Made by a program: the position numbers and the translations under genes
Shown: one piece after another, positions 1,851 through 59,327 of the stretch
Numbering within the stretch: position 1 is the stretch's first letter
Layout of the letters: every line of letters starts with the position of its first letter
Notes under the pieces: model-generated
What the model was told of the DNA's origin: nothing
What the model saw: only the letters and a program-made list of their open reading frames with translations
Database searches by the model: none
NCBI GenBank assembly: GCA_038064475.1
Contig: JBBTTA010000001.1
Coordinates: 111,086-175,085, forward strand
DNA: 64,000 bases
Direction of reading: 5' to 3'
Source: Patescibacteria group bacterium
GTDB lineage: Bacteria > Patescibacteriota > Minisyncoccia > Phycocordibacterales > EsbW-18

Positions 1851-1865
1851 ACACATTTGAAATTC

Positions 1866-1956
1866 CAGATACAAGGCGTGGGCGAGGACCAAACCGAGCA
1901 ATAGTTTTTCTATTGTGAGGGAGGATTGGAGCCCACAACACAGTAGGTGGATTTTC
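1866..1956. repeat. about 91-nt structured intergenic repeat, copy 1 (the second copy is at 20783..20875)
   Basis: Both copies begin cagatacaaggcg and end cagtagNtgNgatttc. They fold as nested stems gtgggc/gcccac, ccaa/ttgg and caatag/ctattg. Copy 1 lies in the gap between the convergent fmt and PPIase genes. Confidence 0.5.
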
Positions 1957-1964
1957 AAATGCGT

Positions 1965-2621: not shown

Positions 2622-2622
2622 A

Positions 2623-3000: not shown

Positions 3001-3059
3001 GGAAAACGTAGAACTAGAATAATAAATGCCTGTTACTTTCTCTATAGTACTACTTTTTC

Positions 3060-3959: not shown

Positions 3960-4022
3960 ATCTTCATGAAATTTTTCAGCCAATAAAGATAGTGTATCAG
4001 GTATACTACTACCAATACACCT

Positions 4023-5216: not shown

Positions 5217-5254
5217 GAAAAAGCCCCGTATGGACATGTGGCCCACACAGAGCT

Positions 5255-15446: not shown

Positions 15447-15483
15447 ATGCGGGACTTTTGGAATATGGATTCTATTATACGGC

Positions 15484-16353
15484 ATGACACGCCCCGACGA
15501 AATCCGGCTTCTGGAGAAGGAGGAGTGGCCAGCATTTCTTCACGAAATAACCGATCCGCCTTCGAAACTCTTTGTACGGGGTGTTGTACCCCCTTCTGGT
15601 ACGCATTTTCTATCTGTCGTCGGCTCACGAAAATATTCTCCCTATGCAAAAAGTGTTTGTGAACGACTCATTGCTGGGCTTTCTGGCTATCCTATATCTA
15701 TTGTATCGGGTCTAGCGCTTGGTATTGATGGCATTGCGCATGAAGCAGCATTGGCGGCTGGACTCCACACTATTGCAGTCCCTGGGTCTGGTTTATCTGA
15801 CACGGTACTGTATCCACGTGCACATCTTCCCTTAGCACGTCGCATTATCCAGAGTGGTGGCGCGTTGATATCAGAGTTTGAGCATGAGTTCAAAGCAACT
15901 GATTGGAGTTTTCCTCAAAGAAATAGAGTGATGGCAGGTATGTCGCATGCAGTCCTTATTATTGAAGCGGGTGAAAAATCAGGAACACTCATCACCGCAC
16001 GACTTGGTATGGAGTATGGGCGACGAGTGCTCGTTGTTCCTTCGCCTCTTTTTACACCGTACGGAAAGGGTTCGAATGCTCTGTTGCGTGTCGGGGCTGA
16101 ACTTATTACCTCTTCATCAGATATTTTGGAAGCACTTGGTATTGAGGAAGCTGTACATAATGAAAAAGTGATGCCGCTCAATATATCTGACGACGAAAAG
16201 AAGATACTTGAAGTGCTCAATGAGCCGCTCCAAAAAGATCAGATCATTGCGCGCGCCGGCATGCCGGCGCGCGCTGTTCTCGTTCTCCTTTCGACACTCG
16301 AAATAAAAGGAATCATCACTGAACGTTTGGGAAAAATCGAACGTGTACGTTAG
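15484..16353 (+). CDS. dprA: DNA processing protein DprA/Smf
   Basis: GSRKYSPYAKSVCERLIAGLSGYPISIVSGLALGIDGIAHEAAL matches the DprA Rossmann-like domain. The start is the ATG at 15484; the longer ORF-track version overlaps serS in antisense. Confidence 0.8.
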   Translation: MTRPDEIRLLEKEEWPAFLHEITDPPSKLFVRGVVPPSGTHFLSVVGSRKYSPYAKSVCERLIAGLSGYPISIVSGLALGIDGIAHEAALAAGLHTIAVPGSGLSDTVLYPRAHLPLARRIIQSGGALISEFEHEFKATDWSFPQRNRVMAGMSHAVLIIEAGEKSGTLITARLGMEYGRRVLVVPSPLFTPYGKGSNALLRVGAELITSSSDILEALGIEEAVHNEKVMPLNISDDEKKILEVLNEPLQKDQIIARAGMPARAVLVLLSTLEIKGIITERLGKIERVR

Positions 16354-16400
16354 TATGAAGTTTGCAAAAGGTTGTGTATCGTAGTATTACTGTTCTTCAT

Positions 16401-18602
16401 ATGACAAAACTCGTCATCGTCGAGTCACCGGCGAAAGCAAAAACAATTGAAAAATATCTTGGCGAGGACTACGTTGTAAAAGCGAGCGTCGGTCACGTGC
16501 GCGATCTTCCAAAGAGCAACAAGAATGCAATTGATATCGAGAATGGTTTTACACCTAACTACGAAATCGTAGCCGCAAAACGCGCGGTGATTGATGAACT
16601 AAAAACAGCGGCGAAAAAAGCCGACCAAGTTATTCTTGCAACTGACCCCGACCGTGAAGGTGAAGCAATCGCATGGCACTTGGTGCAAGCGCTCGGCCTC
16701 CACAAAGCTGGTGCAAAAAAGAGTGGTGACGTACAGCGTGTTGTATTCCACGAAATCACAAAAGATGCCGTGCAAGAAGCGATGAAGCACCCACGCGCAA
16801 TTGATGAGAACCTCCGTCAAGCACAAGAAGCACGTCGAGTCTTGGACCGTCTCGTAGGATACGATCTCTCAGGACTTATTTGGAAAAAAGTTCGCTACGG
16901 TCTGTCGGCTGGCCGCGTGCAATCCCCCGCGCTTAGAATTCTCATGGAACGTGAGCGAGAAATTCGCGCATTTAAACCTGAAGACTACTGGATTCTCACT
17001 GCAGATACAAAAACAAAGTCAGGTGATGCGCTTGTGTTGACCGCAACCGAAGAACCTCGCGATCAAAAGCGTGTTGACACAATTATCTCTCTCGGAGAGA
17101 AAGCAGAGTGGCCAGTCACTGACATTAAAGAAACAACAGTTAATCGCCAACCAAAACCTCCGTTCACGACATCAACAATCCAGCAGGCAGCATCAACACG
17201 ACTCGGCTTCTCACCTTCACGCACGATGCGCGCGGCACAAAAACTCTATGAAAGTGGTCACATCACGTACATGCGTACTGACTCAACGACGCTTGCCGCT
17301 GTCGCCCAGAAACAAATTGTTTCTGTTATTGAATCTGAATATGGAAAAGAGTTTGCACGCCCAACAGCATACAAAAGCGCAAGTAAGAATGCACAGGAAG
17401 CCCACGAAGCTATTCGCCCAACTGATGTAGGGAAACAATCAGTAAAAAAAGGTGACGATGAAGATCGCCTCTACGAACTTATTTGGCGACGCACCGTAGC
17501 GAGCCAGATGGTGCCTGCACAGCTTTCGCAAACAAAAGTAGAAAGCATCCCCGATGCAAAAGATATGCCGGCGTTTACGGTCACAGGTTCACGCGTCATT
17601 TTTCCTGGTTGGTTAGCTGCTGATCCTGCATCTCGTGGTGAAGATGTCACGATTCCTCCAGTTGAGAAAGGTGAATTATTGAAATTGAAATCACTCACGG
17701 GAGATGCACGTCAAACACAGCCCCCAACACGCTACTCCGAAGCGGGTCTCATTAAAGAACTTGAGAAGCGTGGCATCGGTCGCCCTTCAACGTACGCCGC
17801 AATCATCAAAACAATTGAAGAGCGTGGGTATGTTTTGAAAGAAGGACGCACCTTGATGCCAACAGATACAGGAGATGTGGTGAGCACGTTCCTCGAAACA
17901 TATTTTGCTGATTACATCAGTGACTCATTTACGTCAGAAATGGAGGACGAGCTCGACGAAATCTCTCGTGGTGAACGTGATTATGCGAAAACATTGCAAG
18001 AATTTTATACACCATTTCAAAAAGAGCTCGCAAAGCGCTCAAAAGACGCAAAGAAAATCACTGACCTCGGTCCAGCGCCAAAAGAATTCCCCTGTCCGAA
18101 GTGTGGGAGTCCTATGGTCATGAAATTGGCGCGCAATGGAACGTTCATGAGCTGTTCTCGTTTTCCTGATTGTGATGGCGCTCGCGCACACGATGGTAAA
18201 GAAGTGACGCCACCTGAAGAATTGGGTAAAGATCCGGCATCAGGCGAATCTATTTTTGTACTTGAAGGACCCTACGGACCATACGTACAGATTGGTGTAA
18301 AAACCCCAAAAAATAAAAAACCTCGTCGCGCATCAATTCCAAAAGAGAAAGACCTTTCGACACTCACGATTGAAGAAGCCCTCAAGTATTTGAGCTTGCC
18401 GAGAGAACTTGGTGTACACCCAGAATCGGGCAAAGCAATCATAGCAAACATTGGACGCTTTGGTCCGTACATTGGACACGATGGTGATTTTCGATCACTC
18501 AAAACAGATGATGCGTATGCAATCACACTGAAACGCGCACTTGAGATATTAAAAGAGCCAAAGAAAGTCGGTCGCGGACGATTTGCCAAAAAGAAAAAGT
18601 AG
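16401..18602 (+). CDS. topA: DNA topoisomerase I
   Basis: The Toprim N-terminus reads LVIVESPAKAKTIEKYLG. The C-terminus has zinc-ribbon repeats such as CPKCGSPM. The start is set at MTKLVIVESP. Confidence 0.9.
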   Translation: MTKLVIVESPAKAKTIEKYLGEDYVVKASVGHVRDLPKSNKNAIDIENGFTPNYEIVAAKRAVIDELKTAAKKADQVILATDPDREGEAIAWHLVQALGLHKAGAKKSGDVQRVVFHEITKDAVQEAMKHPRAIDENLRQAQEARRVLDRLVGYDLSGLIWKKVRYGLSAGRVQSPALRILMEREREIRAFKPEDYWILTADTKTKSGDALVLTATEEPRDQKRVDTIISLGEKAEWPVTDIKETTVNRQPKPPFTTSTIQQAASTRLGFSPSRTMRAAQKLYESGHITYMRTDSTTLAAVAQKQIVSVIESEYGKEFARPTAYKSASKNAQEAHEAIRPTDVGKQSVKKGDDEDRLYELIWRRTVASQMVPAQLSQTKVESIPDAKDMPAFTVTGSRVIFPGWLAADPASRGEDVTIPPVEKGELLKLKSLTGDARQTQPPTRYSEAGLIKELEKRGIGRPSTYAAIIKTIEERGYVLKEGRTLMPTDTGDVVSTFLETYFADYISDSFTSEMEDELDEISRGERDYAKTLQEFYTPFQKELAKRSKDAKKITDLGPAPKEFPCPKCGSPMVMKLARNGTFMSCSRFPDCDGARAHDGKEVTPPEELGKDPASGESIFVLEGPYGPYVQIGVKTPKNKKPRRASIPKEKDLSTLTIEEALKYLSLPRELGVHPESGKAIIANIGRFGPYIGHDGDFRSLKTDDAYAITLKRALEILKEPKKVGRGRFAKKKK

Positions 18603-27431: not shown

Positions 27432-29153
27432 GTGTTTTCTTGTATGGATATCCAAACACACGGTATATCAAGCACTGATTCTCCTACGCGAAACGTATGG
27501 GGTAATTCCACATTTCTTGAGCGCGTCCTTTTGCTTTGTCTCTCAGCTATTGTTGTTGTCAGCGGTTACATATTCTTTTCACACCTCACGACACGCCTAA
27601 CTCTTGAACAACCCTCACGCGGTGGTTCATTCACTGAGGGTATTGTCGGCACACCACGTTTTATCAATCCGCTCCTCGCACAATCACAAGCCGACCAAGA
27701 TTTGAGCATACTTTTGTTTTCGGGTTTGATGCGTGCTTTGCCTGACGGCACACTTGTTCCTGACCTCGCTCGTGACTTTACGGTGTCCGAAGACGGAACC
27801 CAGTACACATTCATGCTTGATAGAGATGCCGTTTTCCACGATGGCACAGCGATCACTGCCGATGACGTTGTCTTTACCATTACACGAGCACACGATCCAG
27901 CATTGCAAAGCCCTCAGGAAGACGTGTGGACGGGTATCGGTGTTGAAGCATTAAATGAGCGAACAGTCACCTTCACCCTGTCACGTGCATACGCATCATT
28001 CCTTGAAAACCTTACGATTGGTATTTTGCCCGCACACCTTTGGGAGAGCACGCCCCCTGAAGAGTTTTCCGCACACATTTTGAACACTGAACCTGTTGGT
28101 AGTGGTCCGTACAAACTAGCATCAGTGAAACGAAATACATCAGGTATTCCTACAAGCTACATCTTGAGTGCATTTAATGATTCAACACGCGGCCGACCAC
28201 ATATCAATGAAATCATTATTCGCATTTTTGGAAATGAAAAAGATGTCCTAAGTGCATTTCTCGATAATGATATCGACAGTCTTGATGGACTTGACCCGAT
28301 TGATGCAAAAACGCTTACAGACAACGGTGCCCTTGTCAGTCAATATGATCTTCCTCGGGTATTTGGTCTGTTCTTCAACCAAAATAAAAATGACACGCTC
28401 ACGAGCATTTCAGTTCGTCGTGCACTCAACGCCGCGATTGATAAAGAAGTAATCGTTGAGGAGGTACTCAACGGTTTTGGTGAAGCACTCTACTCGCCTC
28501 TTCCAACAAATCTCTTTGCCGCATCAACAACAAACGTTACTAACCATACAGAAGAGGCACGGGGTATTCTCGAACGCGCAGGGTTTGTACTGAATGAAGA
28601 GACAGGATTTTTTGAGGATGACGACATTCCACTCTCCGTTCATATCGCAACAGCAAATTCACCTGAACTTCGCACCGTCGCCGATATGGTAAAAGACGCG
28701 TGGGAGAAGGCTGGTATTGAAACAACAGTCGAACTTTTTGATATTGGCCAACTCCACCATGAGGTAATCCGCCCACGCTCGTACGATGTACTTTTGTTTG
28801 GTGAAGTGGTTGGCCGTGATGGCGATCTCTATCCATTTTGGCATTCATCACAACGCAACGACCCTGGGCTCAACGTTGCCCTCTATGCAAGCATTACCGC
28901 CGATGCTATACTCGAGGACATCAGAGCAACCCTTGATTCGGCTACGCGAGAGGAACTCTACACGTCCTTCGTGGACGAGATAGAGTCAGATGTGCCCGCG
29001 GTATTTCTGTATATGCCGCACCTTCTCTATGTTGCTCCAAAAAATGTGTCTGGTATGACTATTGGAGTCGTCCACACAGGAGCTGAAAGATTCTTGGATG
29101 TTCATGAATGGTATGTGCGTACTGAACGTGTTTGGAAATTCCTTTCACACTAA
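27432..29153 (+). CDS. ABC transporter substrate-binding protein, family 5 (peptide/nickel type), membrane-anchored
   Basis: 573 aa with an N-terminal TM helix. It shows the family 5 SBP fold, but I recognised no specific signature motif. Confidence 0.7.
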   Translation: MFSCMDIQTHGISSTDSPTRNVWGNSTFLERVLLLCLSAIVVVSGYIFFSHLTTRLTLEQPSRGGSFTEGIVGTPRFINPLLAQSQADQDLSILLFSGLMRALPDGTLVPDLARDFTVSEDGTQYTFMLDRDAVFHDGTAITADDVVFTITRAHDPALQSPQEDVWTGIGVEALNERTVTFTLSRAYASFLENLTIGILPAHLWESTPPEEFSAHILNTEPVGSGPYKLASVKRNTSGIPTSYILSAFNDSTRGRPHINEIIIRIFGNEKDVLSAFLDNDIDSLDGLDPIDAKTLTDNGALVSQYDLPRVFGLFFNQNKNDTLTSISVRRALNAAIDKEVIVEEVLNGFGEALYSPLPTNLFAASTTNVTNHTEEARGILERAGFVLNEETGFFEDDDIPLSVHIATANSPELRTVADMVKDAWEKAGIETTVELFDIGQLHHEVIRPRSYDVLLFGEVVGRDGDLYPFWHSSQRNDPGLNVALYASITADAILEDIRATLDSATREELYTSFVDEIESDVPAVFLYMPHLLYVAPKNVSGMTIGVVHTGAERFLDVHEWYVRTERVWKFLSH

Positions 29154-44239: not shown

Positions 44240-44554
44240 ATGCACGAAGGAACACGAGAAGAAACATTTGCGCATCTTGCTGCAGAGTTTATCAATCGAG
44301 AATCAAACCGCGAATCACTTATTACCGTCACGCGCGTGATGTCGTCAACGGACAGCAAACGTGCTGATGTCTACATCACTGTACTCCCTGACACACGCGT
44401 TCCTGAGGCCCTCGACTTTTTGAAACGTAAACGAAGTGAGTTCCGTGAATTCGTAAAAACACATACGCGCGGACGTTCAGTTCCAACATTTGATTTTGTG
44501 TTTGATGTTGGTGAAAAAAACCGACAAGAAATCGAAGCATTGTCACAACATTGA
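44240..44554 (+). CDS. rbfA: ribosome-binding factor A
   Basis: 104 aa beginning MHEGTREETFAHLAAEFINRESNRESLITVTRV, which resembles RbfA. It sits directly downstream of infB. Confidence 0.7.
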   Translation: MHEGTREETFAHLAAEFINRESNRESLITVTRVMSSTDSKRADVYITVLPDTRVPEALDFLKRKRSEFREFVKTHTRGRSVPTFDFVFDVGEKNRQEIEALSQH

Positions 44555-44625
44555 GGCACGGGCGGGAATCGAACCCGCGCATGACGGTTTTGCAGACCGT
44601 AGTGTTACCACTTCACCACCGTGCC
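44554..44625 (-). tRNA. tRNA-Cys (anticodon GCA)
   Basis: On the minus strand: acceptor GGCACGG/CCGTGCC, anticodon loop CTGCAAA and T-arm GCGGG-TTCGATT-CCCGC. Confidence 0.85.
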
Positions 44626-44670
44626 ATGATTGTGTACAGAGTATCTCTATTTTGGTATTTTGGGAAGCAA

Positions 44671-44753
44671 GCTGGGGTGGCGAAATGGTATACGCGACAG
44701 ACTTAAGATCTGTTGTCCGCAAGGACGTGAGGGTTCGATCCCCTCTCCCAGCA
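44671..44753 (+). tRNA. tRNA-Leu (anticodon TAA), class II
   Basis: Acceptor GCTGGGG/TCCCAGC (with one G-U pair), anticodon loop CTTAAGA, long variable arm and T-arm GAGGG-TTCGATC-CCCTC. Confidence 0.9.
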
Positions 44754-44766
44754 CTAAAATTGTTGA

Positions 44767-44799
44767 GACGAACACATGTGTTCGTCGATTACTATTTTT
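44767..44799 (+). terminator. terminator after tRNA-Leu(TAA)
   Basis: The palindrome gacgaacacatgtgttcgtc is followed by gattactattttt. Confidence 0.6.
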
Positions 44800-44919
44800 G
44801 CTGGGAGAGGGGATCGAAGGCGAGTGCGGGCGCCTTGTCAGCAGACAAGGTCGCATGAGCAGGACTGAGAGGAATGAGGAGCGACGGCGACGAATGAGCT
44901 CTTGGTCTGAGCCCCTCTC
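44800..44919. repeat. tRNA-Leu 3'-flank structured element, copy 2 of 3
   Basis: It starts with gctgggagaggggatcgaa, the exact reverse complement of this tRNA's 3' half. The core is about 90% identical to copy 1. It ends with cccctctc, which pairs with gagagggg in the first segment. Confidence 0.5.
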
Positions 44920-44968
44920 TTAAAATATAAATTGCGAATAGAGCGTTATTTTAGTAGGATACAAACAC

Positions 44969-45040
44969 CCATCCGTAGCTCAATGGTAGAGCAGCTCCCT
45001 CTTAAGGAGTTGGTTGTAGGTTCGACTCCTACCGGGTGGA
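44969..45040 (+). tRNA. tRNA-Lys (anticodon CTT)
   Basis: Acceptor CCATCCG/CGGGTGG, D-arm GCTC-AATGGTA-GAGC, anticodon loop CTCTTAA and T-arm GTAGG-TTCGACT-CCTAC. Confidence 0.85.
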
Positions 45041-45130
45041 CTTTCAAAGAAAGTCCTGCATATTAGAGTGTGCGGAGCACATTCTACTCCGGCAAGCTTT
45101 GCCTGATTCGCGTTCTGACGCGACAAAGCT

Positions 45131-45224
45131 TACCGGGTGGACAAGTGAGCCGGTATCGATGAGCTTGCTTATCGGAAACGGCGAGCGCGGACACTCGGTA
45201 TCCTATACCGGGTGGACAAGTGAG
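45131..45224 (+). repeat. two 19-nt direct repeats (taccgggtggacaagtgag) that copy the 3' end of tRNA-Lys; they resemble att-site remnants
   Basis: The 12-nt core taccgggtggac is present at the tRNA 3' end (45030..45041) and again at 45131..45149 and 45206..45224. Confidence 0.5.
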
Positions 45225-45246
45225 TTTTAGTCGCCTGCTCACGTTC

Positions 45247-45328
45247 GGGCGAGTGGCGAAATTGGTAGACGCGCCAGCCTTAGGAGCTGGTGGAGCAATC
45301 CTTGGAGGTTCGAGTCCTCTCTCGCCCA
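45247..45328 (+). tRNA. tRNA-Leu (anticodon TAG), class II
   Basis: Acceptor GGGCGAG/CTCGCCC, anticodon loop CTTAGGA, long variable arm and T-arm GGAGG-TTCGAGT-CCTCT. Confidence 0.9.
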
Positions 45329-45335
45329 CACATAC

Positions 45336-45368
45336 AAAAACAACGCCAGTTTATTGGCGTTGTTTTTG
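45336..45368 (+). terminator. terminator after tRNA-Leu(TAG)
   Basis: The hairpin aaaaacaacgcc-agtttatt-ggcgttgttttt is present. Confidence 0.6.
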
Positions 45369-45384
45369 TATGTGCTGACGAAAA

Positions 45385-45495
45385 CGAGAGAGGACTCGAA
45401 GGACGGAGCGGTGTTGCAGAAGCTTCTGCAACCGCGAGTCCGTGCCTAGCCCGAACCGAGCGACGGCGAGGTGAGAGGCGAAGGAGAGTCCTCTT
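45385..45495. repeat. tRNA-Leu 3'-flank structured element, copy 3 of 3 (the divergent member)
   Basis: It starts with cgagagaggactcgaa, the reverse complement of this tRNA's 3' half. It shares gagcgacggcga with the other copies. Its internal hairpin gttgcagaagcttctgcaac replaces the ccttgtcagcagacaagg hairpin of copies 1 and 2. It ends with gagtcctct, which pairs with agaggactc. Confidence 0.45.
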
Positions 45496-45656
45496 CCCTT
45501 TCAAGCCCCTGTTAAGCCTTTATTTTTGGCCATATAGCTTGACTTTTTGGGTGAAAGTGCTATAATCGTCGGCAGAGTTGGGAACGTGTGTTCCCTAAAG
45601 TTCTTCGTCAACCTAGAGTCAAAACAAACTTCCCTATTGGGAAAGGAGATACAAAA

Positions 45657-46757
45657 ATGCTCATCTGGTTCGCAATCGTAGTGCTTTTCGTAATCCTCGT
45701 CATCCTTGCCGGAAAACTCGGCTGGTTCATGACCGAGGTTCCCGAGGGCTCTATGAAGTTCGTAAAAGCTGGTGAGGATTACGTCCGTACAATCCTCAAC
45801 ATCAAGAACAAGACGATGGTCAGGAAGTTTGATCCAGCAACTGGAGTCGAAGAAGAAGTCATCGAAACTGGATTCAATCCACTGTCTTTGTCTCCTCTTC
45901 GTGTATTCGGTTTTCACTGGATCAGTTGGATGTGGCCTCTTCGGCGTCTGCATCGGTTTTCTTTGACTACGAACATTCTCATTACGGAAACCGAACAGGG
46001 TCAAAAGAAACTCCACGAGTGGGTGCAGACCAAGCCACACGACAACACCGACCGACTTGGTCTCATGATCCGATCATACTTCTTTTTGAAGGGGGTCGAG
46101 CTCAAGGGGCAGTTCAAGGTAGACGTCGTTGTGTTCGCTCTCATGGAGATCGTCAACCCGCGTCTTGCAGTCTTCGTGTACAATGCTGACTTCGTCAAGA
46201 TCTTGGGACCAGCAATCCTTTCTGGATATGCTGACAATGCCAAGACCAAAGACATCGTCCAGTTCACGAACCTGAAGAAAGGACGTGGGAGTAAGTTCGC
46301 ACAAGATGTTTGTGAGTATGTAAATACAGGCCGCAGAAGTAAGGTCGCAACCGAGAAAATCGAAAACGTATACGGCGTTCGACTTGTCGAGACGTTTGTA
46401 TACGAGTTCGACCAAGCAGATGCTGATCCCGAGGCTCTCAAGGCCGCACAGGCTCAGAAAGTTGCCGAGCTCCAAGCAAAGGCAACTATCACAAGAGCAA
46501 CGGGTCAAGCTGAAGCTCGAGTGATCGAAGCCAATGCAAAAGCCACCGAGCTCTCGTCGAACGTCAAAGCACTCGTCGAGGTTGGGGTTGATCCCAACGA
46601 AGCGATGCGTAGTTACGCGACCATCCGTTCGACAGAGAATGTTCCAAACCTTCAGACGTGGGTGCAAGGTGGCGGTGTGGTTCCGACAGTTTCTGTTGGC
46701 AATCCCACTTCCCCTTCCCCTTCGTCCAAGAACAAACCCAAGGAGACTCCCTCATGA
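45657..46757 (+). CDS. SPFH / band-7 (stomatin/HflK-like) domain membrane protein
   Basis: It has an N-terminal TM helix, a band-7 core and a coiled-coil, AQAQKVAELQAKATITRATGQAEARVIEANAKA. AAGGAG sits 8 nt upstream of the ATG. The region's GC is visibly elevated. Confidence 0.75.
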   Translation: MLIWFAIVVLFVILVILAGKLGWFMTEVPEGSMKFVKAGEDYVRTILNIKNKTMVRKFDPATGVEEEVIETGFNPLSLSPLRVFGFHWISWMWPLRRLHRFSLTTNILITETEQGQKKLHEWVQTKPHDNTDRLGLMIRSYFFLKGVELKGQFKVDVVVFALMEIVNPRLAVFVYNADFVKILGPAILSGYADNAKTKDIVQFTNLKKGRGSKFAQDVCEYVNTGRRSKVATEKIENVYGVRLVETFVYEFDQADADPEALKAAQAQKVAELQAKATITRATGQAEARVIEANAKATELSSNVKALVEVGVDPNEAMRSYATIRSTENVPNLQTWVQGGGVVPTVSVGNPTSPSPSSKNKPKETPS

Positions 46758-47815
46758 TGAAGCGATTTTTGTTTCGTGCGAAGCGTTTCGCACGCAAGTG
46801 CGATATCAGGCTTCGTCGGAGGTTTCGTTCATTCGCAACCTTCGTCACGGTTCAGCGACGACGTGTTGGTTCTCACCTTCGCGTCGTGGTTTGGCCGAGG
46901 CTCAAGCTTCGACTGAACCAATTCAGTGTCCTTCTCATCACGAGAGGTATCGTACCTATCAAGGCACACTACCTGAAACATCGACTGATGGTTGTGACTG
47001 CCTTTAAGTTCGTGCTGAAAATCACTGCGGTCATCGTAGTGCTTCTCATAGCACGCGCACAGGGGCTCTTCGGAGAGAGCCTTTCTTTGAGGGAGTATCG
47101 GTGGTGGATCCTTGGAGTGCTTGTTGCACTCTGTGTGGTTCTACTTTCCGTGCTCCTATATCGGAAAGGGGTTCGCCTCAAGAAGTTTTCACTTCCGGGT
47201 TCTGTGGGTGAGAGGTTCAGCTTCAAAGGCTTCCTCAAACTTGCTCTGCTTGTGTTCGTGATCTTCTTCTTCAAGGATGTCATCGTAGCTACGGCTGCGG
47301 GCATCTGGAGCATTCGTCCCACCGACGAGAATATCGCTCGTTGGGAGAAGGACAAGCGTGCTGCTGAAGAAGCGACACGCAAAGCTCGCAGAACGGATTG
47401 GCCGTGCACATACGACCTCTCGGAGTACGGCGGGAAGCACGTCGCTAACCACGACGCGAAGTTCCTCAAGCCGGACGATGGAGAGGCGTGGAAGGTCTGT
47501 TTCTATGACCGACGCAAGCCCGAGCCCCTCTCCAACCAGCAGTTGAATAACTTCTGGAAGGACACCTTCCCTACACTCGTCGGAGATTCTGCTGGCTGGG
47601 ATGTAATCGTGATCAAAAACCGTGACTTCAACACGAAGACGTGTATGGTCCGGGACAAGCACAACAACGCATACTACCGACAGCAGTTTCCGAAGGAGTC
47701 TGGCGAGGTTTCGATCGACATGGTCGACGAGTCTCGCCGGCTCGTCATCGGCGGGGACAGCAAGGAAGAGGCCGAGTCGGGTAAAATCCCGCAAGTGTTC
47801 ACAATTTCCTGTTAG
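46754..47815 (+). CDS. hypothetical membrane protein co-transcribed with the SPFH gene
   Basis: Its ATG overlaps the SPFH stop (ATGA). It has two or three TM helices centrally and a soluble C-terminal domain. Confidence 0.5.
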   Translation: MMKRFLFRAKRFARKCDIRLRRRFRSFATFVTVQRRRVGSHLRVVVWPRLKLRLNQFSVLLITRGIVPIKAHYLKHRLMVVTAFKFVLKITAVIVVLLIARAQGLFGESLSLREYRWWILGVLVALCVVLLSVLLYRKGVRLKKFSLPGSVGERFSFKGFLKLALLVFVIFFFKDVIVATAAGIWSIRPTDENIARWEKDKRAAEEATRKARRTDWPCTYDLSEYGGKHVANHDAKFLKPDDGEAWKVCFYDRRKPEPLSNQQLNNFWKDTFPTLVGDSAGWDVIVIKNRDFNTKTCMVRDKHNNAYYRQQFPKESGEVSIDMVDESRRLVIGGDSKEEAESGKIPQVFTISC

Positions 47816-47834
47816 ACTCAAGGTTGAAATTCCA

Positions 47835-47870
47835 GAGGCGACGCCACAAGCGTCGCCTCTTTTCTTTTTT
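47835..47870 (+). terminator. rho-independent terminator
   Basis: The hairpin gaggcgacgc-cacaa-gcgtcgcctc is followed by ttttctttttt. Confidence 0.75.
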
Positions 47871-47920
47871 ATACATAACAAAACACCCCCTACACACCAC
47901 CATAGTGGTGTCGGGCGAAC

Positions 47921-47945
47921 AAAAACCACCAGTAGGTGGTTTTTG
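47921..47945. terminator. bidirectional terminator
   Basis: The hairpin aaaaaccacc-agta-ggtggttttt is present. Confidence 0.6.
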
Positions 47946-47968
47946 TTTTAGCCGGCAAGTTTTTGTTT

Positions 47969-48277
47969 TTAGATTCCGCCTTCAACTTGCGGCTCTATCT
48001 GTTCGTTTATTGAAGGTAGAGGCTCGTTACTTCCTATAGTCCCATGAATGATACGGATGATGCCAAACACTGACACCATGATGACCATGCCAATGATTCC
48101 ATAAAGCATATTCCTCTTCCCTGTTGCACGCTCACCTTCGTCATCAACATTCTTTATGAACTGGAATATTCCGTAAATGAAGAGGAGAAATGCAACAGCA
48201 AAAAGCAACATGATGACCGGACGCACGATGACATCATACAGTCGCGTCAAAAGTCCATTAACGGTCATTGGCTCCAT
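47969..48277 (-). CDS. small two-helix membrane protein, pilin-like paralog 1 (TrbC/VirB2-like architecture)
   Basis: 102 aa. The core LLFIYGIFQFIKNVDDEGERATGKRNMLYGIIGMVIMVSVFGIIRII is shared with the five upstream ORFs. Confidence 0.55.
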   Translation of the reverse strand: MEPMTVNGLLTRLYDVIVRPVIMLLFAVAFLLFIYGIFQFIKNVDDEGERATGKRNMLYGIIGMVIMVSVFGIIRIIHGTIGSNEPLPSINEQIEPQVEGGI

Positions 48278-48291
48278 GAACTGAAATATAG

Positions 48292-48642
48292 TTAGTTTCC
48301 TTCAACACCAGGAACTGGTAGTGACCCACCTTGATCAACACCAACCGCGTCACCAATCCATCGGATGATACCAACGATAGAAACGATAACGAAGAGTGCA
48401 ATGATACCTCCGATCATGAGGTTTTTACCTTGTTCTTTTGCTTCGTCACTACCTGAAGCGAAGATAAACTTCACCAAACCCCAGAAGAAAACAAGGAGAG
48501 CGATACCGACAACGATAGGTGTTGCAAGATCAACCAACCGGCCGATCGCTTCAACAATGTTCTCCACATTACCCAACTGTGCGTGTGCAAATGCTGGCAC
48601 AAATGCCGCAGCCGCAAGCGCGATAAGACCAATTCTTTTCAT
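48292..48642 (-). CDS. pilin-like small membrane protein, paralog 2
   Basis: 116 aa with a signal peptide ending AFAHA, then a hydrophobic helix, the loop GSDEAKEQGKN and a second helix IGGIIALFVIVSIVGIIRWI. Confidence 0.55.
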   Translation of the reverse strand: MKRIGLIALAAAAFVPAFAHAQLGNVENIVEAIGRLVDLATPIVVGIALLVFFWGLVKFIFASGSDEAKEQGKNLMIGGIIALFVIVSIVGIIRWIGDAVGVDQGGSLPVPGVEGN

Positions 48643-48749
48643 ACGTGTAAATATCTAGTTTTTAAACCTATAGGCCTTCGAAAGAAAGCTATGTATCCAT
48701 TATACCCTGCCCTGTGTGTGAGCAAGGACGCTATACACAGATGGGGAAA

Positions 48750-49118
48750 CTATGGTGTTGGAGGTGGTATTACTATTGGTGGAAGAATTGGAGGTGTTCC
48801 CGGTGTTATACCAACCTCTATTCCAATCCAGCGTATAATTCCGAAAATTGCAAAAAGTACAAAGAGTGCAATCGCACCTTGTACCATAAGTCGACGCCCT
48901 CCTTCTTTCGCACCTTCGTCTTCCGCATTCGCAATGTATTTTACAAGACCCCAAATAAAAACAAGAAGTGCAAGTGAAGCTGCAATGATTGTCAGTGTAG
49001 TGATAACTTGTCGAAAACTGGTTAAAAGGAGCTTTGTATTTGAAAGATTACCTCCTCCTTGCGCCAACACAAGAACCGGAAGAGCAAGAAGCCCAGATAT
49101 AAACAATAATTTTTTCAT
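48750..49118 (-). CDS. pilin-like small membrane protein, paralog 3, with a Pro-rich C-terminal tail
   Basis: 122 aa with the same core, LVFIWGLVKYIANAEDEGAKEGGRRLMVQGAIALFVLFAIFGIIRWI. Confidence 0.55.
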   Translation of the reverse strand: MKKLLFISGLLALPVLVLAQGGGNLSNTKLLLTSFRQVITTLTIIAASLALLVFIWGLVKYIANAEDEGAKEGGRRLMVQGAIALFVLFAIFGIIRWIGIEVGITPGTPPILPPIVIPPPTP

Positions 49119-49137
49119 AAAATAATATTAATTAATT

Positions 49138-49446
49138 TCAACCGAAGATATCGGTCTTGATAAACTGAACGATACCCCAGAAAGAGAAAAGAACGAACAA
49201 ACCGATAATACCGTATACCATTATTTTTCGGCCGTCATCCTTCGCTTTTCCATCCCCCGCTGATGCAATGTACTTTACGATTCCCCATACGAACGCAAGA
49301 ACTGCCAAAGCGCTCGCCAGCACAATAAGTGGGTTGATAAGGCCGATCGCGTCATTAATAAGTTCTGTAAGATTTGCAGGTGCGGCAAAGGCAAGACTTG
49401 GAACAATCAAGGAAAGAATAAAAGCTGATTTTTTCATATTATCCAA
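49138..49446 (-). CDS. pilin-like small membrane protein, paralog 4
   Basis: 102 aa reading AFVWGIVKYIASAGDGKAKDDGRKIMVYGIIGLFVLFSFWGIVQFI. Confidence 0.55.
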   Translation of the reverse strand: MDNMKKSAFILSLIVPSLAFAAPANLTELINDAIGLINPLIVLASALAVLAFVWGIVKYIASAGDGKAKDDGRKIMVYGIIGLFVLFSFWGIVQFIKTDIFG

Positions 49447-49873
49447 AATGAATTATTTCTGCTGAGTTTGTTCCTGCTCGTATCTGGTCAAGTGTTCCTT
49501 TGATGACGTTCGCAAGCACCGTCGCCCCAAGAAGTACCGCTGTGCCGATAAGTGTATACAAAAGAGTTTTCTTTGCGCTTTTCAACGCCTCCTCATTACC
49601 ACGTGCCTTCACAAACAAAAATCCGGAGTAAATGATGAAAAAAACAGCGACATAAAATCCAATCGTCGTTGCAGCTTTTGCGGCTTCGACAACAACTTCT
49701 TGAATTGAATCAAATTTAAGTGGGTTAACAATTTGAACAGGGCCCGGATTAGGTGTTCCTTGCGCAAAGGCAAAAGATACCGAAATAAATAGTCCAAAAA
49801 ATAATGCTATATAAAGTTTTTTAAAATGCGTTTCCATATCCTCCGTATCCAGACTTAACAAATGTTGTAACAA
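49439..49873 (-). CDS. pilin-like small membrane protein, paralog 5 (longer form)
   Basis: It has the same topology and loop, GFLFVKARGNEEALKSAKKTLLYTLIGTAVLLGATVLANVI. The start is uncertain; METHFKK at 49837 is possible. Confidence 0.5.
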   Translation of the reverse strand: MLQHLLSLDTEDMETHFKKLYIALFFGLFISVSFAFAQGTPNPGPVQIVNPLKFDSIQEVVVEAAKAATTIGFYVAVFFIIYSGFLFVKARGNEEALKSAKKTLLYTLIGTAVLLGATVLANVIKGTLDQIRAGTNSAEIIHFG

Positions 49874-50219
49874 TAAGATTCACGATAAGCCAAGCTGACA
49901 AAGCTATTATAAAGCCAATACCTGCATTTTTAAAGATGCTTTTTGCTTGTTCCATCCTTCCAGGATTGCCTCCCGCTGTAATAAGCAAAAACCCAGCCCA
50001 CAAGAAAAGAATTGTCACCAAGGGAATTGAGATCTTAAAGAGGAGAAAATCAATGAGACCGTCAACAAGTTGAACGAGACTCGCAAAATTACAGTCCAAA
50101 CCGTCACAGGGAACAAGACCTTCCGGCTCTGCTGCCCCAACAAGGATCGGTACCAAAAGAAGCATAAAAACGGCAACGCTTGCGTACACTCCCCATCGTT
50201 TGCCTGCCGTTTGTTTCAT
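49821..50219 (-). CDS. pilin-like small membrane protein, paralog 6 (with a Cys pair in the N-terminal region)
   Basis: 132 aa reading ILFLWAGFLLITAGGNPGRMEQAKSIFKNAGIGFIIALSAWLIVNLIV. Confidence 0.5.
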   Translation of the reverse strand: MKQTAGKRWGVYASVAVFMLLLVPILVGAAEPEGLVPCDGLDCNFASLVQLVDGLIDFLLFKISIPLVTILFLWAGFLLITAGGNPGRMEQAKSIFKNAGIGFIIALSAWLIVNLIVTTFVKSGYGGYGNAF

Positions 50220-50245: not shown

Positions 50246-51547
50246 CTAGTCTATGAGGTTTTGCAGGCGTGTATCCGCTTCTCCTACCGCTTGGCTCACT
50301 CCACGGCGGCCTGATGCGATGTCAGAAATCATCGTTCCCAAAATGCCATCTGTCTCCGTTGGGCTTGGATCAAGAAATCCATGTGCAATAAGTGCTTCTG
50401 TGTAAAAGATTGATTTGAACGCATCGGTTGGTTTTTGTGCCAAGAGGTCTCGGCGAACAGGAGAAAGTAAAAACTTGTCCGACCACAATTGACCAGCTTG
50501 TGCACCCGAGAGTGCAAATGCTGCTTGGAATGCCCCGCCGACGTTGTCAGATTGCTTCATGAGCGCAATACCGTAGAATTTTCCGAATGTAGATTTTGTC
50601 GGGCCATCAGATACTTGTGGTACACGCGCAACATCGAAATTGAGGTTCGGATTTTTTTCCTGAATATCAAGAAGCTCACTTGCAAAACCAAGGTAGAGTG
50701 CAAGATCACCTCGCAAAAACATATCGAGCGATGCAGGTAATGCACGATTCCATGAATAGACCAGCTTCACCGGATTTGCGAACTCGGTGTAAAAACGAAT
50801 TGCTGAATCCGCGGGCGCCTCCGCAAATCCAAGCCTGTCAGAAAGAATTGATTCCACACCTTGTGTCGGAATACGTGTCGTGATTGGATTCCCCGCTTGC
50901 ATAACGAGTGTTGCAAGAATTTCTTTTGCATTCGTTACGTTTTCATACCCACCGAGTGCAATTGTGCTTTGCAAAACACTAAATGATGGATCCGTTTTTG
51001 TAAGTTTTGTTGAAAGATCGACAAGTTCGTCCCACGCTTTTGGCGGAAGGGCTAAGCTTGCTGCATTAAAGAGTGAGCGGTTCCAATACATGACAAGAGG
51101 ATCGACAAGAATTGGAAGTGCCAAAACACCCTCATCGGTGAGATAAATTTCTGATCCTTCGGCGAATGTGTCGCGGAAGGTGCGTTCCGTCATTGATGTA
51201 AAGGGTACGGTGTAAATCTTATCTTCGTAGCGCATGATATATTCATGCGGCAAAATGATTGCATCAGGCCCACGTTGTGCCGCCAAGGCTTCAATAAGTT
51301 CGGTATCGAATGTATCAGGTGAGAATTCTTTGTAGGTAACTGCGGAAAGTGAGTTGTCGGTGTCTTGGTTGTAGAGCGTCAAAATGTCTCCAACAAGCGC
51401 TGTGTCGAGCGTTCCCCAAATTGTGCCCGCTGCGGGCACAGCGTCTCCTCCACTGCCTCCAAATTTTCCGAATGTTGCAATTGCGGCAACACCCATGACG
51501 ATAAAGAACCCAAATATTGCGAGAAGTACTGCTTGAAATGTTTTCAT
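50246..51547 (-). CDS. membrane-anchored extracytoplasmic solute-binding-protein-like protein
   Basis: 433 aa with an N-terminal TM helix and a large periplasmic-type domain resembling family 1 substrate-binding proteins. It is the first large gene upstream of the pilin-like array. Confidence 0.5.
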   Translation of the reverse strand: MKTFQAVLLAIFGFFIVMGVAAIATFGKFGGSGGDAVPAAGTIWGTLDTALVGDILTLYNQDTDNSLSAVTYKEFSPDTFDTELIEALAAQRGPDAIILPHEYIMRYEDKIYTVPFTSMTERTFRDTFAEGSEIYLTDEGVLALPILVDPLVMYWNRSLFNAASLALPPKAWDELVDLSTKLTKTDPSFSVLQSTIALGGYENVTNAKEILATLVMQAGNPITTRIPTQGVESILSDRLGFAEAPADSAIRFYTEFANPVKLVYSWNRALPASLDMFLRGDLALYLGFASELLDIQEKNPNLNFDVARVPQVSDGPTKSTFGKFYGIALMKQSDNVGGAFQAAFALSGAQAGQLWSDKFLLSPVRRDLLAQKPTDAFKSIFYTEALIAHGFLDPSPTETDGILGTMISDIASGRRGVSQAVGEADTRLQNLID

Positions 51548-52208: not shown

Positions 52209-52270
52209 AACAGAGAACAAAAAACAGAGGAAACACTTGTATTGTGGCCCTCTGTTTTTTGTTCTCTGTT
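52209..52270. terminator. perfect 22-bp inverted repeat (aacagagaacaaaaaacagagg / cctctgttttttgttctctgtt), a terminator-like hairpin
   Basis: It lies between the gyrA stop and the methyltransferase start. On the minus strand it is followed by CUUUUAUAG. Confidence 0.55.
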
Positions 52271-56743: not shown

Positions 56744-58066
56744 CTAGCTAGGAAGATTTATTGGTGGTTCACTCTTACGTGATTCAATGCGGCCCAGTGT
56801 TGGTGTTTCAGACACGCCACCTGGGAAGTGGAAAATCGTCGCCAACTCTTCAGAGTTGAGTATAAAAGGTTTTCTTTTATATTTTTCCTTAAAAAGGAAT
56901 TGCGTGCTGATGCCACTGTGCGGTGCGTGGAAATATCCGCGCAAACGATATGCTTCAAACATATTCTTTTTCATCTTTGGAAGCTTTTTTCCAAAAGGAT
57001 CTTGAAACCAATAGTCATGGCTGGTTCCAAAAGCTTTCTTAAAACCATTCAAATAGCCCGAGCTGTACTGTGCCAACACACCGTTAAGCGCCCCTTTGTG
57101 CCCATTATTGAAGTATTCTTTCTCAGCAAGATAGAGCGCACGAATACCTACGTCATATCCAGTTTTGCTGGTGCTTCGTTCAAGTGCCTCAATCGTGTCT
57201 TTCTCCACTGGTGTTAGGTTTATTTTATTGTCTTCGGGATCTTCACCTCGAATTTTTCGCTTCTTGATGATCGATGCGATTTCAGTTTTTACATCGTCCT
57301 TCCACTTATCCGTTGGTTCACGCCATTCTTTTACTTTCTTTCCTACATCAAAGACATCTTCAGGTTTTGTAAATTGAGAAAGAAGCGATACGTTTTTTGG
57401 GTCTTCTTTTTTATGTGCACGAAGAAGAATTTGGATCCATGCCTGTTCGCCTTTGCCGAGTCCACCCAAGTATTCAAGGACCTGTGTAATCGGATCAATT
57501 TTAAATTCTTCTTTGGGATCTTTATCGAGACCGTAATCAATATATGTCTTTATTGGGTAGGGATCTATTTTCGTAAGTGCGAATTCAGCAGCATAGAGAT
57601 CTGCCTTGTTTTTGTCATACATAAAGGCAAGTGTGTAGTCAGGCACCTCGGTCACTTCAACTGTCGGATACTGTGCGTAGAGGCTGTTTTGAATTCCTTT
57701 GACCGAATCCTTCCACGTCCAAATGAAAAATTTTACCTGTCCCTCAATAGACACAAGTTCAAGCGAAAACCACGGACGTACTCCCCCTTTCCAATATTTG
57801 TCGTACCATGTTCCCTCTCCACCAGTCGCATAAAAAACGCCAAGCGCCAATTCCATTGCTGCAGGAGATTTTGAAACTTCTTTTGGTACACGAATTTCCA
57901 AAAGTACTGGCTCTTTGCTCTGTATGTACTGTGCGCGGCGATATGCCATCCACTGCTGCCAAAACGCACTGATGAGTGCGAGCGGAAGCCAGAGGGGAGC
58001 AAAACGCCACACAAGTTTGAGGACAGAGACAATCGTATCAAGCGTGCTACCAAAATATTCGAACAT
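56744..58066 (-). CDS. hypothetical membrane-anchored protein of about 440 aa
   Basis: The start is set at MFEYFGSTLD, which is followed by a TM helix. The body is large, soluble and K/E-rich. I recognised no family. Confidence 0.45.
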   Translation of the reverse strand: MFEYFGSTLDTIVSVLKLVWRFAPLWLPLALISAFWQQWMAYRRAQYIQSKEPVLLEIRVPKEVSKSPAAMELALGVFYATGGEGTWYDKYWKGGVRPWFSLELVSIEGQVKFFIWTWKDSVKGIQNSLYAQYPTVEVTEVPDYTLAFMYDKNKADLYAAEFALTKIDPYPIKTYIDYGLDKDPKEEFKIDPITQVLEYLGGLGKGEQAWIQILLRAHKKEDPKNVSLLSQFTKPEDVFDVGKKVKEWREPTDKWKDDVKTEIASIIKKRKIRGEDPEDNKINLTPVEKDTIEALERSTSKTGYDVGIRALYLAEKEYFNNGHKGALNGVLAQYSSGYLNGFKKAFGTSHDYWFQDPFGKKLPKMKKNMFEAYRLRGYFHAPHSGISTQFLFKEKYKRKPFILNSEELATIFHFPGGVSETPTLGRIESRKSEPPINLPS

Positions 58067-58118
58067 GGTTCTATGATAGCCTGTTGAAATTGATTTACCA
58101 ATACAGCTTTTTGGATAC

Positions 58119-58150
58119 AAAACACCCCGACGTTTGTCGGGGTGTTTTCT
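58119..58150. terminator. rho-independent terminator
   Basis: The hairpin aaaacaccccgac-gttt-gtcggggtgtttt is present. Confidence 0.7.
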
Positions 58151-58256
58151 TGTATAAAACGGTGGAGCGAACTTAGTTTTTTGAAAAGCCTCGGAAAGTG
58201 CGACGGCACTGGACGGAGCAAAAATACAGGAGTATTTTTGCGTGCTTTTCAAAAAA

Positions 58257-59327
58257 CTATGCGAGCGTATATTTTCCGTCTGACGTCTTTTCGAAGTGCT
58301 TGCTGTCCTGAAGGTTTACCACAATCGTGTTTGGCTTCACGTAACGTTCCTTCAACACCTTCTCGATAATTTCGTCCTTTGCAAGCGTACCGTGCTGTTT
58401 CAAGACCTTCTTGATAACGTCCCGAACGACTCCTTCAACATACCCCCATTCAGAGAGGGCGTAGAGACCGCGTCCAACGAGAACAAATCGTCCGTCCTTA
58501 ATAAGTTCGTTGTGTGCTGTTGCAATGTGCGCCTTACGATCAAAAAGTTCGCTAATGCGCTTTGCAACTTCAGTAAAGTGCAATGGTGAACCATGTTGAC
58601 GAATGGCGAGGTATGCGTAGTCGCGGATACCTTTTGGTGTGATATTCGCTGATGAGGTTGGCCCCCATTCGCCGAGAGGATTGCTACCAATCATTTTTGA
58701 AATCGAGAGCCAGCGCTTTACCATTTCTTCGTTACGGTAGTGTTCTGCAAGATCCTTGATGTGTTCCAAAAATCCTTGAACGATATCTGTTTCAGACACG
58801 AGTTCATCGTCAGAAAGTGTCGTGTATAGTTTTTTTAATGCTTCTTCAATCTTTTCTGCAACACCACCATCAACGTGCCAACGGTGCACAAAGTGCTCGT
58901 CTTCTTTTCGTTTTTCAAATGCTTCGCCGATAACAAGAAGTGCATTGAAGTGATTGCGTGTGCTCTGATCAGTTGAGAGGTGATTCAAAAATGCTTCCTC
59001 AGACACGATGCCACCACAGAAAAGCATTTCTTCGCGGAGTTCGTTAAATGCTACTTGCTCTTTTGTGTATACGTCTGACTTGCGAATAGTTGCGAGGGCG
59101 TAGTTTTCAATCTGACGAACACGTTCTCGTGTGATGTTATACTCACCACCAATTGCTTCAAGCGTCATGCGCTTTGCCTTGTCGTTGAGACCGTAGCGCT
59201 TCACGAGAACATCTTTTGCGCGATCCGTGAGTACACTCAAAAGGCGCTTCGTCACTTGCTTTGGGTTGAAGTGAATCGACGCCTTTGGTGTGCTCACTGC
59301 CTTTGTTTTTGCGGCTGTTTTTGCCAT
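58257..59327 (-). CDS. sigma-70 region 4-like HTH domain protein with an unrelated C-terminal domain
   Basis: The N-terminal segment LEAIGGEYNITRERVRQIENYALATIRK matches sigma-70 region 4.2. The remaining roughly 250 aa have no recognisable sigma regions 2 or 3. Confidence 0.55.
   Translation of the reverse strand: MAKTAAKTKAVSTPKASIHFNPKQVTKRLLSVLTDRAKDVLVKRYGLNDKAKRMTLEAIGGEYNITRERVRQIENYALATIRKSDVYTKEQVAFNELREEMLFCGGIVSEEAFLNHLSTDQSTRNHFNALLVIGEAFEKRKEDEHFVHRWHVDGGVAEKIEEALKKLYTTLSDDELVSETDIVQGFLEHIKDLAEHYRNEEMVKRWLSISKMIGSNPLGEWGPTSSANITPKGIRDYAYLAIRQHGSPLHFTEVAKRISELFDRKAHIATAHNELIKDGRFVLVGRGLYALSEWGYVEGVVRDVIKKVLKQHGTLAKDEIIEKVLKERYVKPNTIVVNLQDSKHFEKTSDGKYTLA

Follow-up and report, generated by a model that had tools for sequence, protein, structure and literature searches.

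Six tandem pilin-like genes in a groundwater Patescibacterium: four VirB2/TrbC-like types in a fixed order

Introduction

The Patescibacteria account for a large share of uncultured bacterial diversity. Among type IV secretion systems (T4SSs), their T4SS-like apparatus alone is known to be one that its own carrier needs in order to grow. Here we analyse a row of six small pilin-like genes in a 64,000-nucleotide (nt) stretch of contig JBBTTA010000001.1. This whole stretch is called the window, and its positions serve as coordinates throughout. The contig (ENA ERZ1292624) belongs to a metagenome-assembled genome (MAG) from Hainich groundwater, listed at NCBI as 'Patescibacteria group bacterium', whose relatives are classed as Paceibacteria. 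The array proves to consist of four old, distinct pilin types that keep a fixed order from species to species.

How does this locus compare with the closest described systems? In PMC12102498 (Quinonero-Coronel et al. 2025), 441 arrays of 2-11 VirB2-like genes, with a mean identity of ~25%, were reported from 383 Patescibacteria assemblies, an array being 2-11 pilin genes of low mutual identity that stand in tandem or with one non-pilin gene between them. Pilin genes lay near virB4 in 1135 of the 1948 Patescibacteria assemblies of that study, and away from virB4 in about 800. An essential series of six pilin genes, inside the T4SS cluster SEML1_0006-0019, has been described in Southlakia epibionticum (PMC10633639, Wang et al. 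2023). The two papers bear out a remark in the initial annotation of the window, which a model made from the letters, that such arrays are known from Patescibacteria. The window array likewise has six contiguous genes of 27-42% mutual identity in a member of the Patescibacteria, and we see in the locus one more ordinary case of a known and very large array family, not a new category.

With the Southlakia array and the other Patescibacteria arrays it shares the PF18895/PF04956 family, the tandem arrangement, identities of ~25-40%, a monoderm ultrasmall host, and the lack of a relaxase or coupling protein in view. Two differences stand out. In Southlakia the array is part of the T4SS cluster and stands beside virB4, whereas in the window and in 80 related Paceibacteria loci no virB4-like gene comes nearer to it than 10 kb; and the window array, unlike that of Southlakia, is in a unit with genes for a methyltransferase and a solute-binding protein (SBP), beside gyrA. 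Linkage of pilin arrays to SBP or gyrA genes is mentioned in neither PMC12102498 nor PMC10633639, and a full-text literature search found no paper that connects them. Nor did we find in these two papers, or in a wider literature search, the order of types that we write below as A-B-C(n)-D, the leaderless last member or the spacer before the penultimate gene. The published picture is usefully refined by the fixed order, the lack of a leader in the last gene, the spacer, the methyltransferase-SBP linkage and the detachment from virB4.

More distant are the Gram-negative pilins VirB2, TrbC, TraA and TraM (of the Agrobacterium T-pilus, RP4, F and pKM101), which share with the window proteins a signal peptide and a helix-loop-helix hairpin of ~70-100 residues; one of the six, P2, passes the TrbC/VirB2 model. 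The Gram-negative systems have a single major pilin gene beside virB3/virB4, a diderm envelope and a separate VirB5 tip protein, whereas the window array has six genes of four types, belongs to a monoderm and lies away from the ATPase. Bartonella and Anaplasma also carry several divergent virB2 genes in a row, with a presumed role, according to work cited in PMC12102498, in antigenic or host-surface variation. Arrays of the window type, by contrast, keep order and type across species.

Results

Six paralogous genes and their leaders

Six consecutive minus-strand open reading frames (ORFs) span exactly 47969-50219, and they are paralogous, as the initial annotation had them. Numbered P1-P6 in the order of transcription, with the types explained below, they are:

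49821-50219, minus strand: P1, type A, 132 amino acids (aa); signal peptide, N-terminal extension with a conserved Cys pair, two hydrophobic helices
49439-49837, minus strand: P2, type B, 132 aa; of the six, closest to TrbC/VirB2; ATG at 49837 behind GGAGG, the maximal ORF extending to 49873
49138-49437, minus strand: P3, type C (the core type), 99 aa; signal peptide AFA↓A
48750-49118, minus strand: P4, type C, 122 aa; signal peptide VLA↓Q, proline-rich C-terminal tail
48292-48642, minus strand: P5, type C, the penultimate gene, 116 aa; signal peptide AHA↓Q; candidate major subunit
47969-48277, minus strand: P6, type D, the last gene, 102 aa; leaderless and short

The maximal ORFs, from P6 to P1, are 102, 116, 122, 102, 144 and 132 aa long, which is the 102-144 aa range first given; the starts of the public gene calls yield 102, 116, 122, 99, 132 and 132 aa, and have better ribosome-site and signal-peptide context. 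An alignment of the six gives a common core, in which a helix ending in (F/I)WG..K(F/Y)I is followed by a charged loop and G(I/A)I(G/A)LFV...GI(I/V). Pairwise identities are 27-42% where BLAST aligns the sequences, with 42% for P3 and P4, 37% for P3 and P5, and 42% for P4 and P5; the C-terminal tails differ in length and composition. The genes had been called tightly packed. This holds for four of the junctions, the spacings from P1 to P6 being -17, +1, 19, 107 and 14 nt, and fails for the single long gap of 107 nt (48643-48749) between P4 and P5.

A scan for hydropathy and the -3/-1 rule assigns to each of P1-P5 a basic N-terminus, a hydrophobic leader, an AxA-type site and two hydrophobic helices, with an amphipathic stretch between the leader and the helix-loop-helix hairpin. 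The predicted cleavage sites are GAA↓E (P1), AFA↓Q (P2), AFA↓A (P3), VLA↓Q (P4) and AHA↓Q (P5). By the same scan P6 begins at the mature-like region and has the two hydrophobic helices only, so that the architecture first assigned to all six, a signal peptide or hydrophobic N-terminus and two helices, stands for five of them and not for the leaderless sixth. Gln follows the AxA site in P2, P4 and P5 and in 32 of 55 penultimate orthologues, as it does in Agrobacterium VirB2 (A↓Q).

Family membership and predicted fold

The Pfam search that the initial annotation had proposed sustains its description of the six as TrbC/VirB2-pilin-like. All six match PF18895 (T4SS_pilin; gathering score 26.6 bits), with 54.0 bits for P1, 35.8 for P2, 42.6 for P3, 25.8 for P4, 48.8 for P5 and 32.4 for P6. 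Five are above the cut-off; P4 falls just under it, yet is 42% identical to P3 and P5. Since all six match one Pfam family, their resemblance is not due to chance. With PF04956 (TrbC/VirB2; 27.9 bits), P2 passes at 30.1 bits, P1 (17.5) and P5 (11.9) stay below, and P3, P4 and P6 do not match. A third model, NCBIfam NF045849, describes the Mbov_0395 family pilin-like conjugal transfer protein of Mycoplasma integrative and conjugative elements (ICEs) and has a cut-off of 40 bits. All six match it below that cut-off, P6 best with 36.9 bits and the other five with 18-28 bits; judged by these scores, the window pilins are related to the family and are not members of it.

A profile of the six genes found 698 homologues among word-sharing candidates, nearly all of them with PF18895, and several are named 'pilin' by NCBI in MAGs of Patescibacteria and of Zambryski-, Wolfe- and Campbellbacteria. 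In an exhaustive HMMER scan of 1.84 billion cluster representatives, 47,920 proteins matched at E <= 1e-3 and 8,410 at E <= 1e-10. The PF18895-type pilin family is very large. We note that many of the top matches are single polypeptides of 200-930 aa with 2-8 pilin repeats (e.g. 353, 820 and 933 aa); these could be true fusions of whole arrays, or gene-calling artefacts on tightly packed arrays, caused by reading through stop codons or by the use of a wrong genetic code.

The AlphaFold2 model of P5 has a mean pLDDT of 79.6, and above 90 across the hairpin. It predicts a leader helix (residues 2-19), then a hairpin in which a loop of four residues connects helices 23-61 and 66-100, and finally a tail that is disordered. 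The six sequences do not fit the type IV (PilA-type) pilins: none has the class III leader motif G↓(F/M)xxxE or a match to a type IV pilin Pfam model, and the two-helix hairpin comes without a globular domain.

A layout conserved in related loci

Species-representative genomes were scanned with an alignment of the SBP encoded upstream of P1, which gave at least 517 SBP relatives; the best 80 loci, with 40-59% SBP identity, were kept, and a hidden Markov model (HMM) built from pilin homologues was searched against all their ORFs. The loci were thus selected through the SBP. The elements of the window that frame the array are these:

50246-51547, minus strand: membrane-anchored, extracellular solute-binding protein (SBP_bac_1), 26 nt from P1
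51655-52185, minus strand: small class I S-adenosylmethionine-dependent methyltransferase, 176 aa (Pfam Methyltransf_31/11/25)
52209-52270: perfect hairpin of ~23 bp between gyrA and the methyltransferase gene (folding energy dG -38 kcal/mol, z -7.5)
47918-47947, minus strand: terminator-like hairpin that closes the array, with a 13-bp stem and a T-run, usable from both strands

The upstream protein, noticed at the outset as a membrane-anchored solute-binding-like protein, is confirmed as such by Pfam SBP_bac_1 (56 bits) and SBP_bac_8 (53.8 bits). Among solved structures it comes closest to sugar ABC-binding proteins (4qrz, 9e-13) and MalE, and by this likeness we class it as a sugar/MalE-type binding protein. 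There is no ABC permease gene near it in the window.

On two long contigs, around pilin homologues, the genes run Lactamase_B_3, small ORF, GyrA, (methyltransferase), SBP and 5-7 pilins, and the wider set is of the same kind. Pilin genes directly follow the SBP gene on the same strand in 77 of the 77 loci with usable downstream DNA, although in 2 of these a partial first pilin gene is all that precedes the contig end. The 61 complete arrays comprise 27 of six genes, 14 of five, 13 of seven, 5 of four, and one each of eight and three. GyrA is encoded upstream in 72 of 81 loci, and the methyltransferase, directly before the SBP, in 71. Median gaps are 5 nt from SBP to P1, 14 nt from methyltransferase to SBP and 225 nt from GyrA to methyltransferase, because of which methyltransferase, SBP and pilins look like one transcription unit, apart from gyrA. 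This layout of methyltransferase, SBP and array is conserved in dozens of Paceibacteria species. In the window the methyltransferase gene is 107 nt from the SBP gene; it is probably the first gene of the unit, and a link to modification of the pilins or the SBP is conceivable. The 52209-52270 hairpin, which separates gyrA from the methyltransferase gene, is probably a bidirectional terminator (its matches to microRNA-precursor models, on both strands, come only from its being a long palindrome). At the other end of the unit, RNA folding of 47918-47947 gives dG -18.8 kcal/mol and z -4.4, and none of 200 shuffled sequences folds equally well.

Four types in a fixed order

Do the six genes correspond, one by one, to genes of other arrays? 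For each window pilin the best BLAST match was taken in each of the 60 other complete arrays. The best match of P1 is the first gene in 56 of the 60, that of P2 the second gene in 52, that of P5 the penultimate gene in 49 and that of P6 the last gene in 55, and the best matches of P3-P5 fall among the middle and penultimate genes. When arrays of at least five genes are compared, a first gene finds its best match in another first gene in 91% of cases; the corresponding figure is 89% for second, 80% for penultimate and 90% for last genes, while genes in the middle match either middle (52%) or penultimate ones (42%). This resolves the arrays into four types:

Type A, first: leader and an extension with a conserved Cys pair; at least two Cys in 53 of 55, three hydrophobic segments in 49 of 55
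Type B, second: leader, NP motif, core GF.fv.A.Gn..ki..Ak..llw..IGaaiLLGA
Type C, middle and penultimate: core FfWG..kfI...G.e..Gk..m.WGi.aLFV
Type D, last: no leader; 50 of 55 with just two hydrophobic segments; median length 92 aa

Types A, B and D are single-copy, and copy number varies in type C only, from 1 to 5; the window array reads A-B-C-C-C-D. For 55 of 55 type A, 54 of 55 type B, 149 of 166 type C and 55 of 55 type D genes, the closest relative belongs to a different genome. In the other 17 of the 166 type C genes it lies in the same genome, with identities of up to 83%. Identity between species within a type is 34-43% and is similar across all types. The higher HMM scores of the penultimate gene had been considered a sign of stronger conservation, and this was discarded: the HMM was built mostly from that type. 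We therefore claim no type to be more conserved than another.

A spacer before the penultimate gene

48643-48749, minus strand: intergenic spacer before P5, 107 nt; candidate internal promoter and 5' untranslated region

The one long gap of the window array recurs in the relatives. Ahead of the penultimate gene the median gap is 104 nt, and 96% of 55 arrays have 60 nt or more there, whereas the medians of the other gaps are 10-16 nt. In the window it contains a perfect TATAAT (48704-48699) and a TTGCTC (48725-48720) at 15-nt spacing. TATAAT occurs in 28 of 53 such spacers, typically ~56 nt ahead of the start codon, against 12.8 +/- 3.1 in shuffled sequences (maximum 23 in 500). As an RNA element the 107-nt spacer has no Rfam match and no significant fold (z -0.95), and a generic promoter scan of the array region found 8 sites where 7.3 were expected, no excess over chance. 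On the simplest reading the spacer would hold an internal promoter that drives the last C-type gene together with the D gene.

Relatives in conjugation systems of monoderm bacteria

A tblastn search of 72,556 plasmids with P2 found only 14 weak matches (E = 0.05-0.9), and all 14 are 'TrbC/VirB2 family protein' genes on conjugative plasmids of the Bacillus cereus group. One of these plasmids, NZ_CP031063.1, has such a TrbC/VirB2-family gene at 27762-28040, a leaderless ORF of 92 aa within an 18-kb conjugation region, and the profiles of all four types rank it top among 65 ORFs, with E values of 3e-6 for type B, 2e-5 for type A, 4e-4 for penultimate type C and 0.012-0.014 for the rest. The Bacillus protein is leaderless like type D. 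Its gene, unlike those of the window array, is a single copy in a conjugation cluster with VirD4-like and VirB11-like ATPases. Because of these plasmid matches and the Mycoplasma ICE model NF045849, the nearest mobile-element relatives of the array lie in monoderm conjugation systems, which bears on the origin of the Patescibacterial pilins. The likeness to the Bacillus and Mycoplasma ICE proteins (Mbov_0395/MMCAP2_0565) is below curated cut-offs and denotes relationship, not membership. In view of the Bacillus result, the published statement that VirB2 homologues are absent from monoderm T4SSs needs qualification.

Discussion

We think it reasonably probable that the six genes encode VirB2/TrbC-like pilin-type subunits of the Patescibacteria T4SS-like apparatus, of types that have different places in one structure assembled by VirB4 and VirB6. 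The subunits would be exported through Sec and lose their leaders, as VirB2 and TraA pilins do, and would then lie in the membrane as hairpins with the two termini facing out and the charged loop facing in, again as VirB2 and TraA. A VirB4/VirB6 machine encoded elsewhere in the genome would extract and polymerise them. The product might be a single structure of mixed composition, a filament on the surface or else a conduit across the envelope, with the termini, including the variable tails, on the outer surface of the assembly. In such a structure the four types would occupy different, non-redundant places: type C, with its variable copy number and the promoter-like spacer before its penultimate copy, would be the bulk subunit, and specialised roles, as tip, adaptor or base subunits, would fall to A, B and the leaderless D. 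The whole would serve contact or exchange with a host cell, and the co-encoded SBP possibly acts at the same surface. Why so many pilins? With the multiple pilin genes resolved into four differentiated types, the question becomes a testable proposal of distinct structural roles, with concrete candidates named, namely type C for the bulk subunit and A, B and D for the specialised ones.

Several observations weigh against this proposal. The first concerns the machinery. The initial annotation saw no T4SS ATPase in the window, and we agree. Every window ORF of at least 490 aa is annotated, and as a housekeeping gene (GyrA, LeuRS, ClpB, TopA, RNase J, BipA, IF-2, RelA/SpoT and others), with no such ATPase among them, and the inspected 10-kb flanks have none either. 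In the window and 10 kb on each side, which is 84 of the 324 kb of the contig, there is no VirB4, VirD4, VirB6, VirB3 or VirB8. Nor does any of these genes lie less than 10 kb from the array in the 80 related loci, and clustering of their ORFs of at least 450 aa yielded no recurrent ATPase. Because of these absences the link to a T4SS comes from homology and from other lineages. Fold searches returned generic helical hairpins only, and are uninformative because any helical hairpin will match; the pKM101 N-pilus pilin TraM (8cw4), the second-best match in a profile search of PDB sequences, was rejected as not significant (E = 0.31). A 2025 review states that a pilus has not yet been observed in Patescibacteria, and monoderm T4SSs are normally without pili. 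The label of major subunit for type C, and for P5 within it, comes from the spacer and the copy number only. The adjacency of SBP and array, finally, is no proof of shared function, because it was the SBP that served to select the loci, and because the functionally unrelated gyrA shares in the synteny. On the other side, five assemblies of relatives that have the same synteny of SBP and array, all Paceibacteria, are listed as VirB4-positive (PMC12102498, Table S1), and for this reason we hold that the T4SS machinery exists in relatives.

One might think that six divergent pilin genes in a row would be interchangeable variants of one major pilin, duplicated and diverged so that the exposed surface changes, which would serve host range or evasion. 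The authors of PMC12102498 raised surface variation for Patescibacteria pilins, and the low identity among the members, the differing tails, and type C, with its range of copy numbers between species and its occasional closest relative within the same genome, are what such a process would leave. The initial annotation hedged between subunit diversification and surface variation, and this was its weak part. Order and type are conserved in at least 55 species, which argues against interchangeable variants of fast turnover. Types A, B and D are single-copy and keep their position in ~90% of comparisons, the closest relative is in another genome for 90-100% of genes, and the types differ in architecture, as with the Cys pair of A and the missing leader of D. 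The Southlakia pilins are essential, which also argues against redundancy (PMC10633639). We regard interchangeable variants as quite unlikely, and the evidence favours non-redundant subunits of one assembly over them. A more elaborate version of the non-redundant reading would make methyltransferase, SBP, A, B, C(n) and D a single module, in a large Paceibacteria clade, that builds an ordered heteromeric filament or conduit on the monoderm cell. The SBP, translated along with the pilins, would capture, for instance, host solutes where the cells touch, and the 'secretion' system would be an uptake device from host to epibiont in which structural and ATPase genes have become separated by relocation of the former; that much we would put forward only as a speculation with rather poor odds.

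A different possibility is that the proteins have left the T4SS altogether, being membrane-resident two-helix proteins of VirB2-like ancestry that work with the SBP, for example in a small uptake or anchoring complex. The distance from virB4 in 80 of 80 loci, the tight coupling to the SBP (77 of 77 loci, median gap 5 nt), the lack of an ABC permease near the SBP and the fact that no Patescibacterial T4SS pilus is on record in the literature would all suit it. Yet the same Pfam family occurs near virB4 in 1135 assemblies (PMC12102498) and inside the essential Southlakia cluster (PMC10633639), and relatives with this very array keep VirB4. Since the synteny takes in gyrA, the co-location with the SBP can be historical, and we infer that two-helix hairpins have no known permease chemistry to offer. 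On balance this alternative seems unlikely, and the T4SS pilin-type subunit remains our preferred reading. Any row of small hydrophobic proteins also calls to mind fragments of a decayed larger gene, PilA-like type IV pilins or phage holins, and P2 does have a weak match to Phage_holin_3_6 (E = 0.73). Each ORF, however, has its own start and stop, P1-P5 have leaders, and position-specific orthologues exist in dozens of other species, so that these are not pieces of one gene; a class III leader of the form G↓F/M-T-L-I-E is missing; and there is neither a PHROGs match nor a phage gene nearby. These last explanations we consider highly improbable.

Neighbouring genes and minor observations

44553-45329: tRNA cluster
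45588-46757, plus strand: ORF in the G+C-rich stretch, with no Pfam or PHROGs match
46658-47815, plus strand: ORF in the G+C-rich stretch, with no Pfam or PHROGs match

Downstream of the array, a G+C-elevated stretch and tRNA genes lie where they had been noted at the outset: G+C is 0.50-0.525 at 45-48 kb (45330-47930), against ~0.45 elsewhere, and the tRNA cluster adjoins it. Is the stretch a mobile island or a prophage? We rejected this, as it has no PHROGs or Pfam match and no integrase, and one of its two genes is syntenic in 10 other loci. In those 10 loci the homologues of that gene (45588-46757) are weak, at 22-28% identity, and occupy the same convergent position; 46658-47815 has no homologues at that position among them. 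The convergent plus-strand gene has its own strong terminator at 47834-47860, and because the plus-strand ORF ends there, a publicly annotated antisense ORF of 246 aa (47189-47929, minus strand) looks spurious.

Elsewhere in the window, a second SBP gene (27432-29153, SBP_bac_5, of the peptide/nickel type) is likewise without adjacent permease genes, and orphan binding proteins may be characteristic of the genome. A membrane-anchored protein whose only domain is DUF8128 adjoins a protein with Sigma70_r4 and HARE-HTH domains (56744-58252 and 58257-59327), and the pair is kept in the closest relatives; no mention of DUF8128 was found in the literature searched. Beyond the high end of the window (flank 1455-5714) a sortase gene is followed by that for a protein of 1169 aa without a Pfam match, which is likely a sortase-anchored surface protein. 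DsbA-like and VKOR genes stand near the sortase gene, and fit disulfide formation in exported proteins such as the type A pilin with its Cys pair. Finally, the natural-transformation gene for DprA lies directly upstream of that for topoisomerase I (15184-18602), and its presence fits the competence reported for Patescibacteria.

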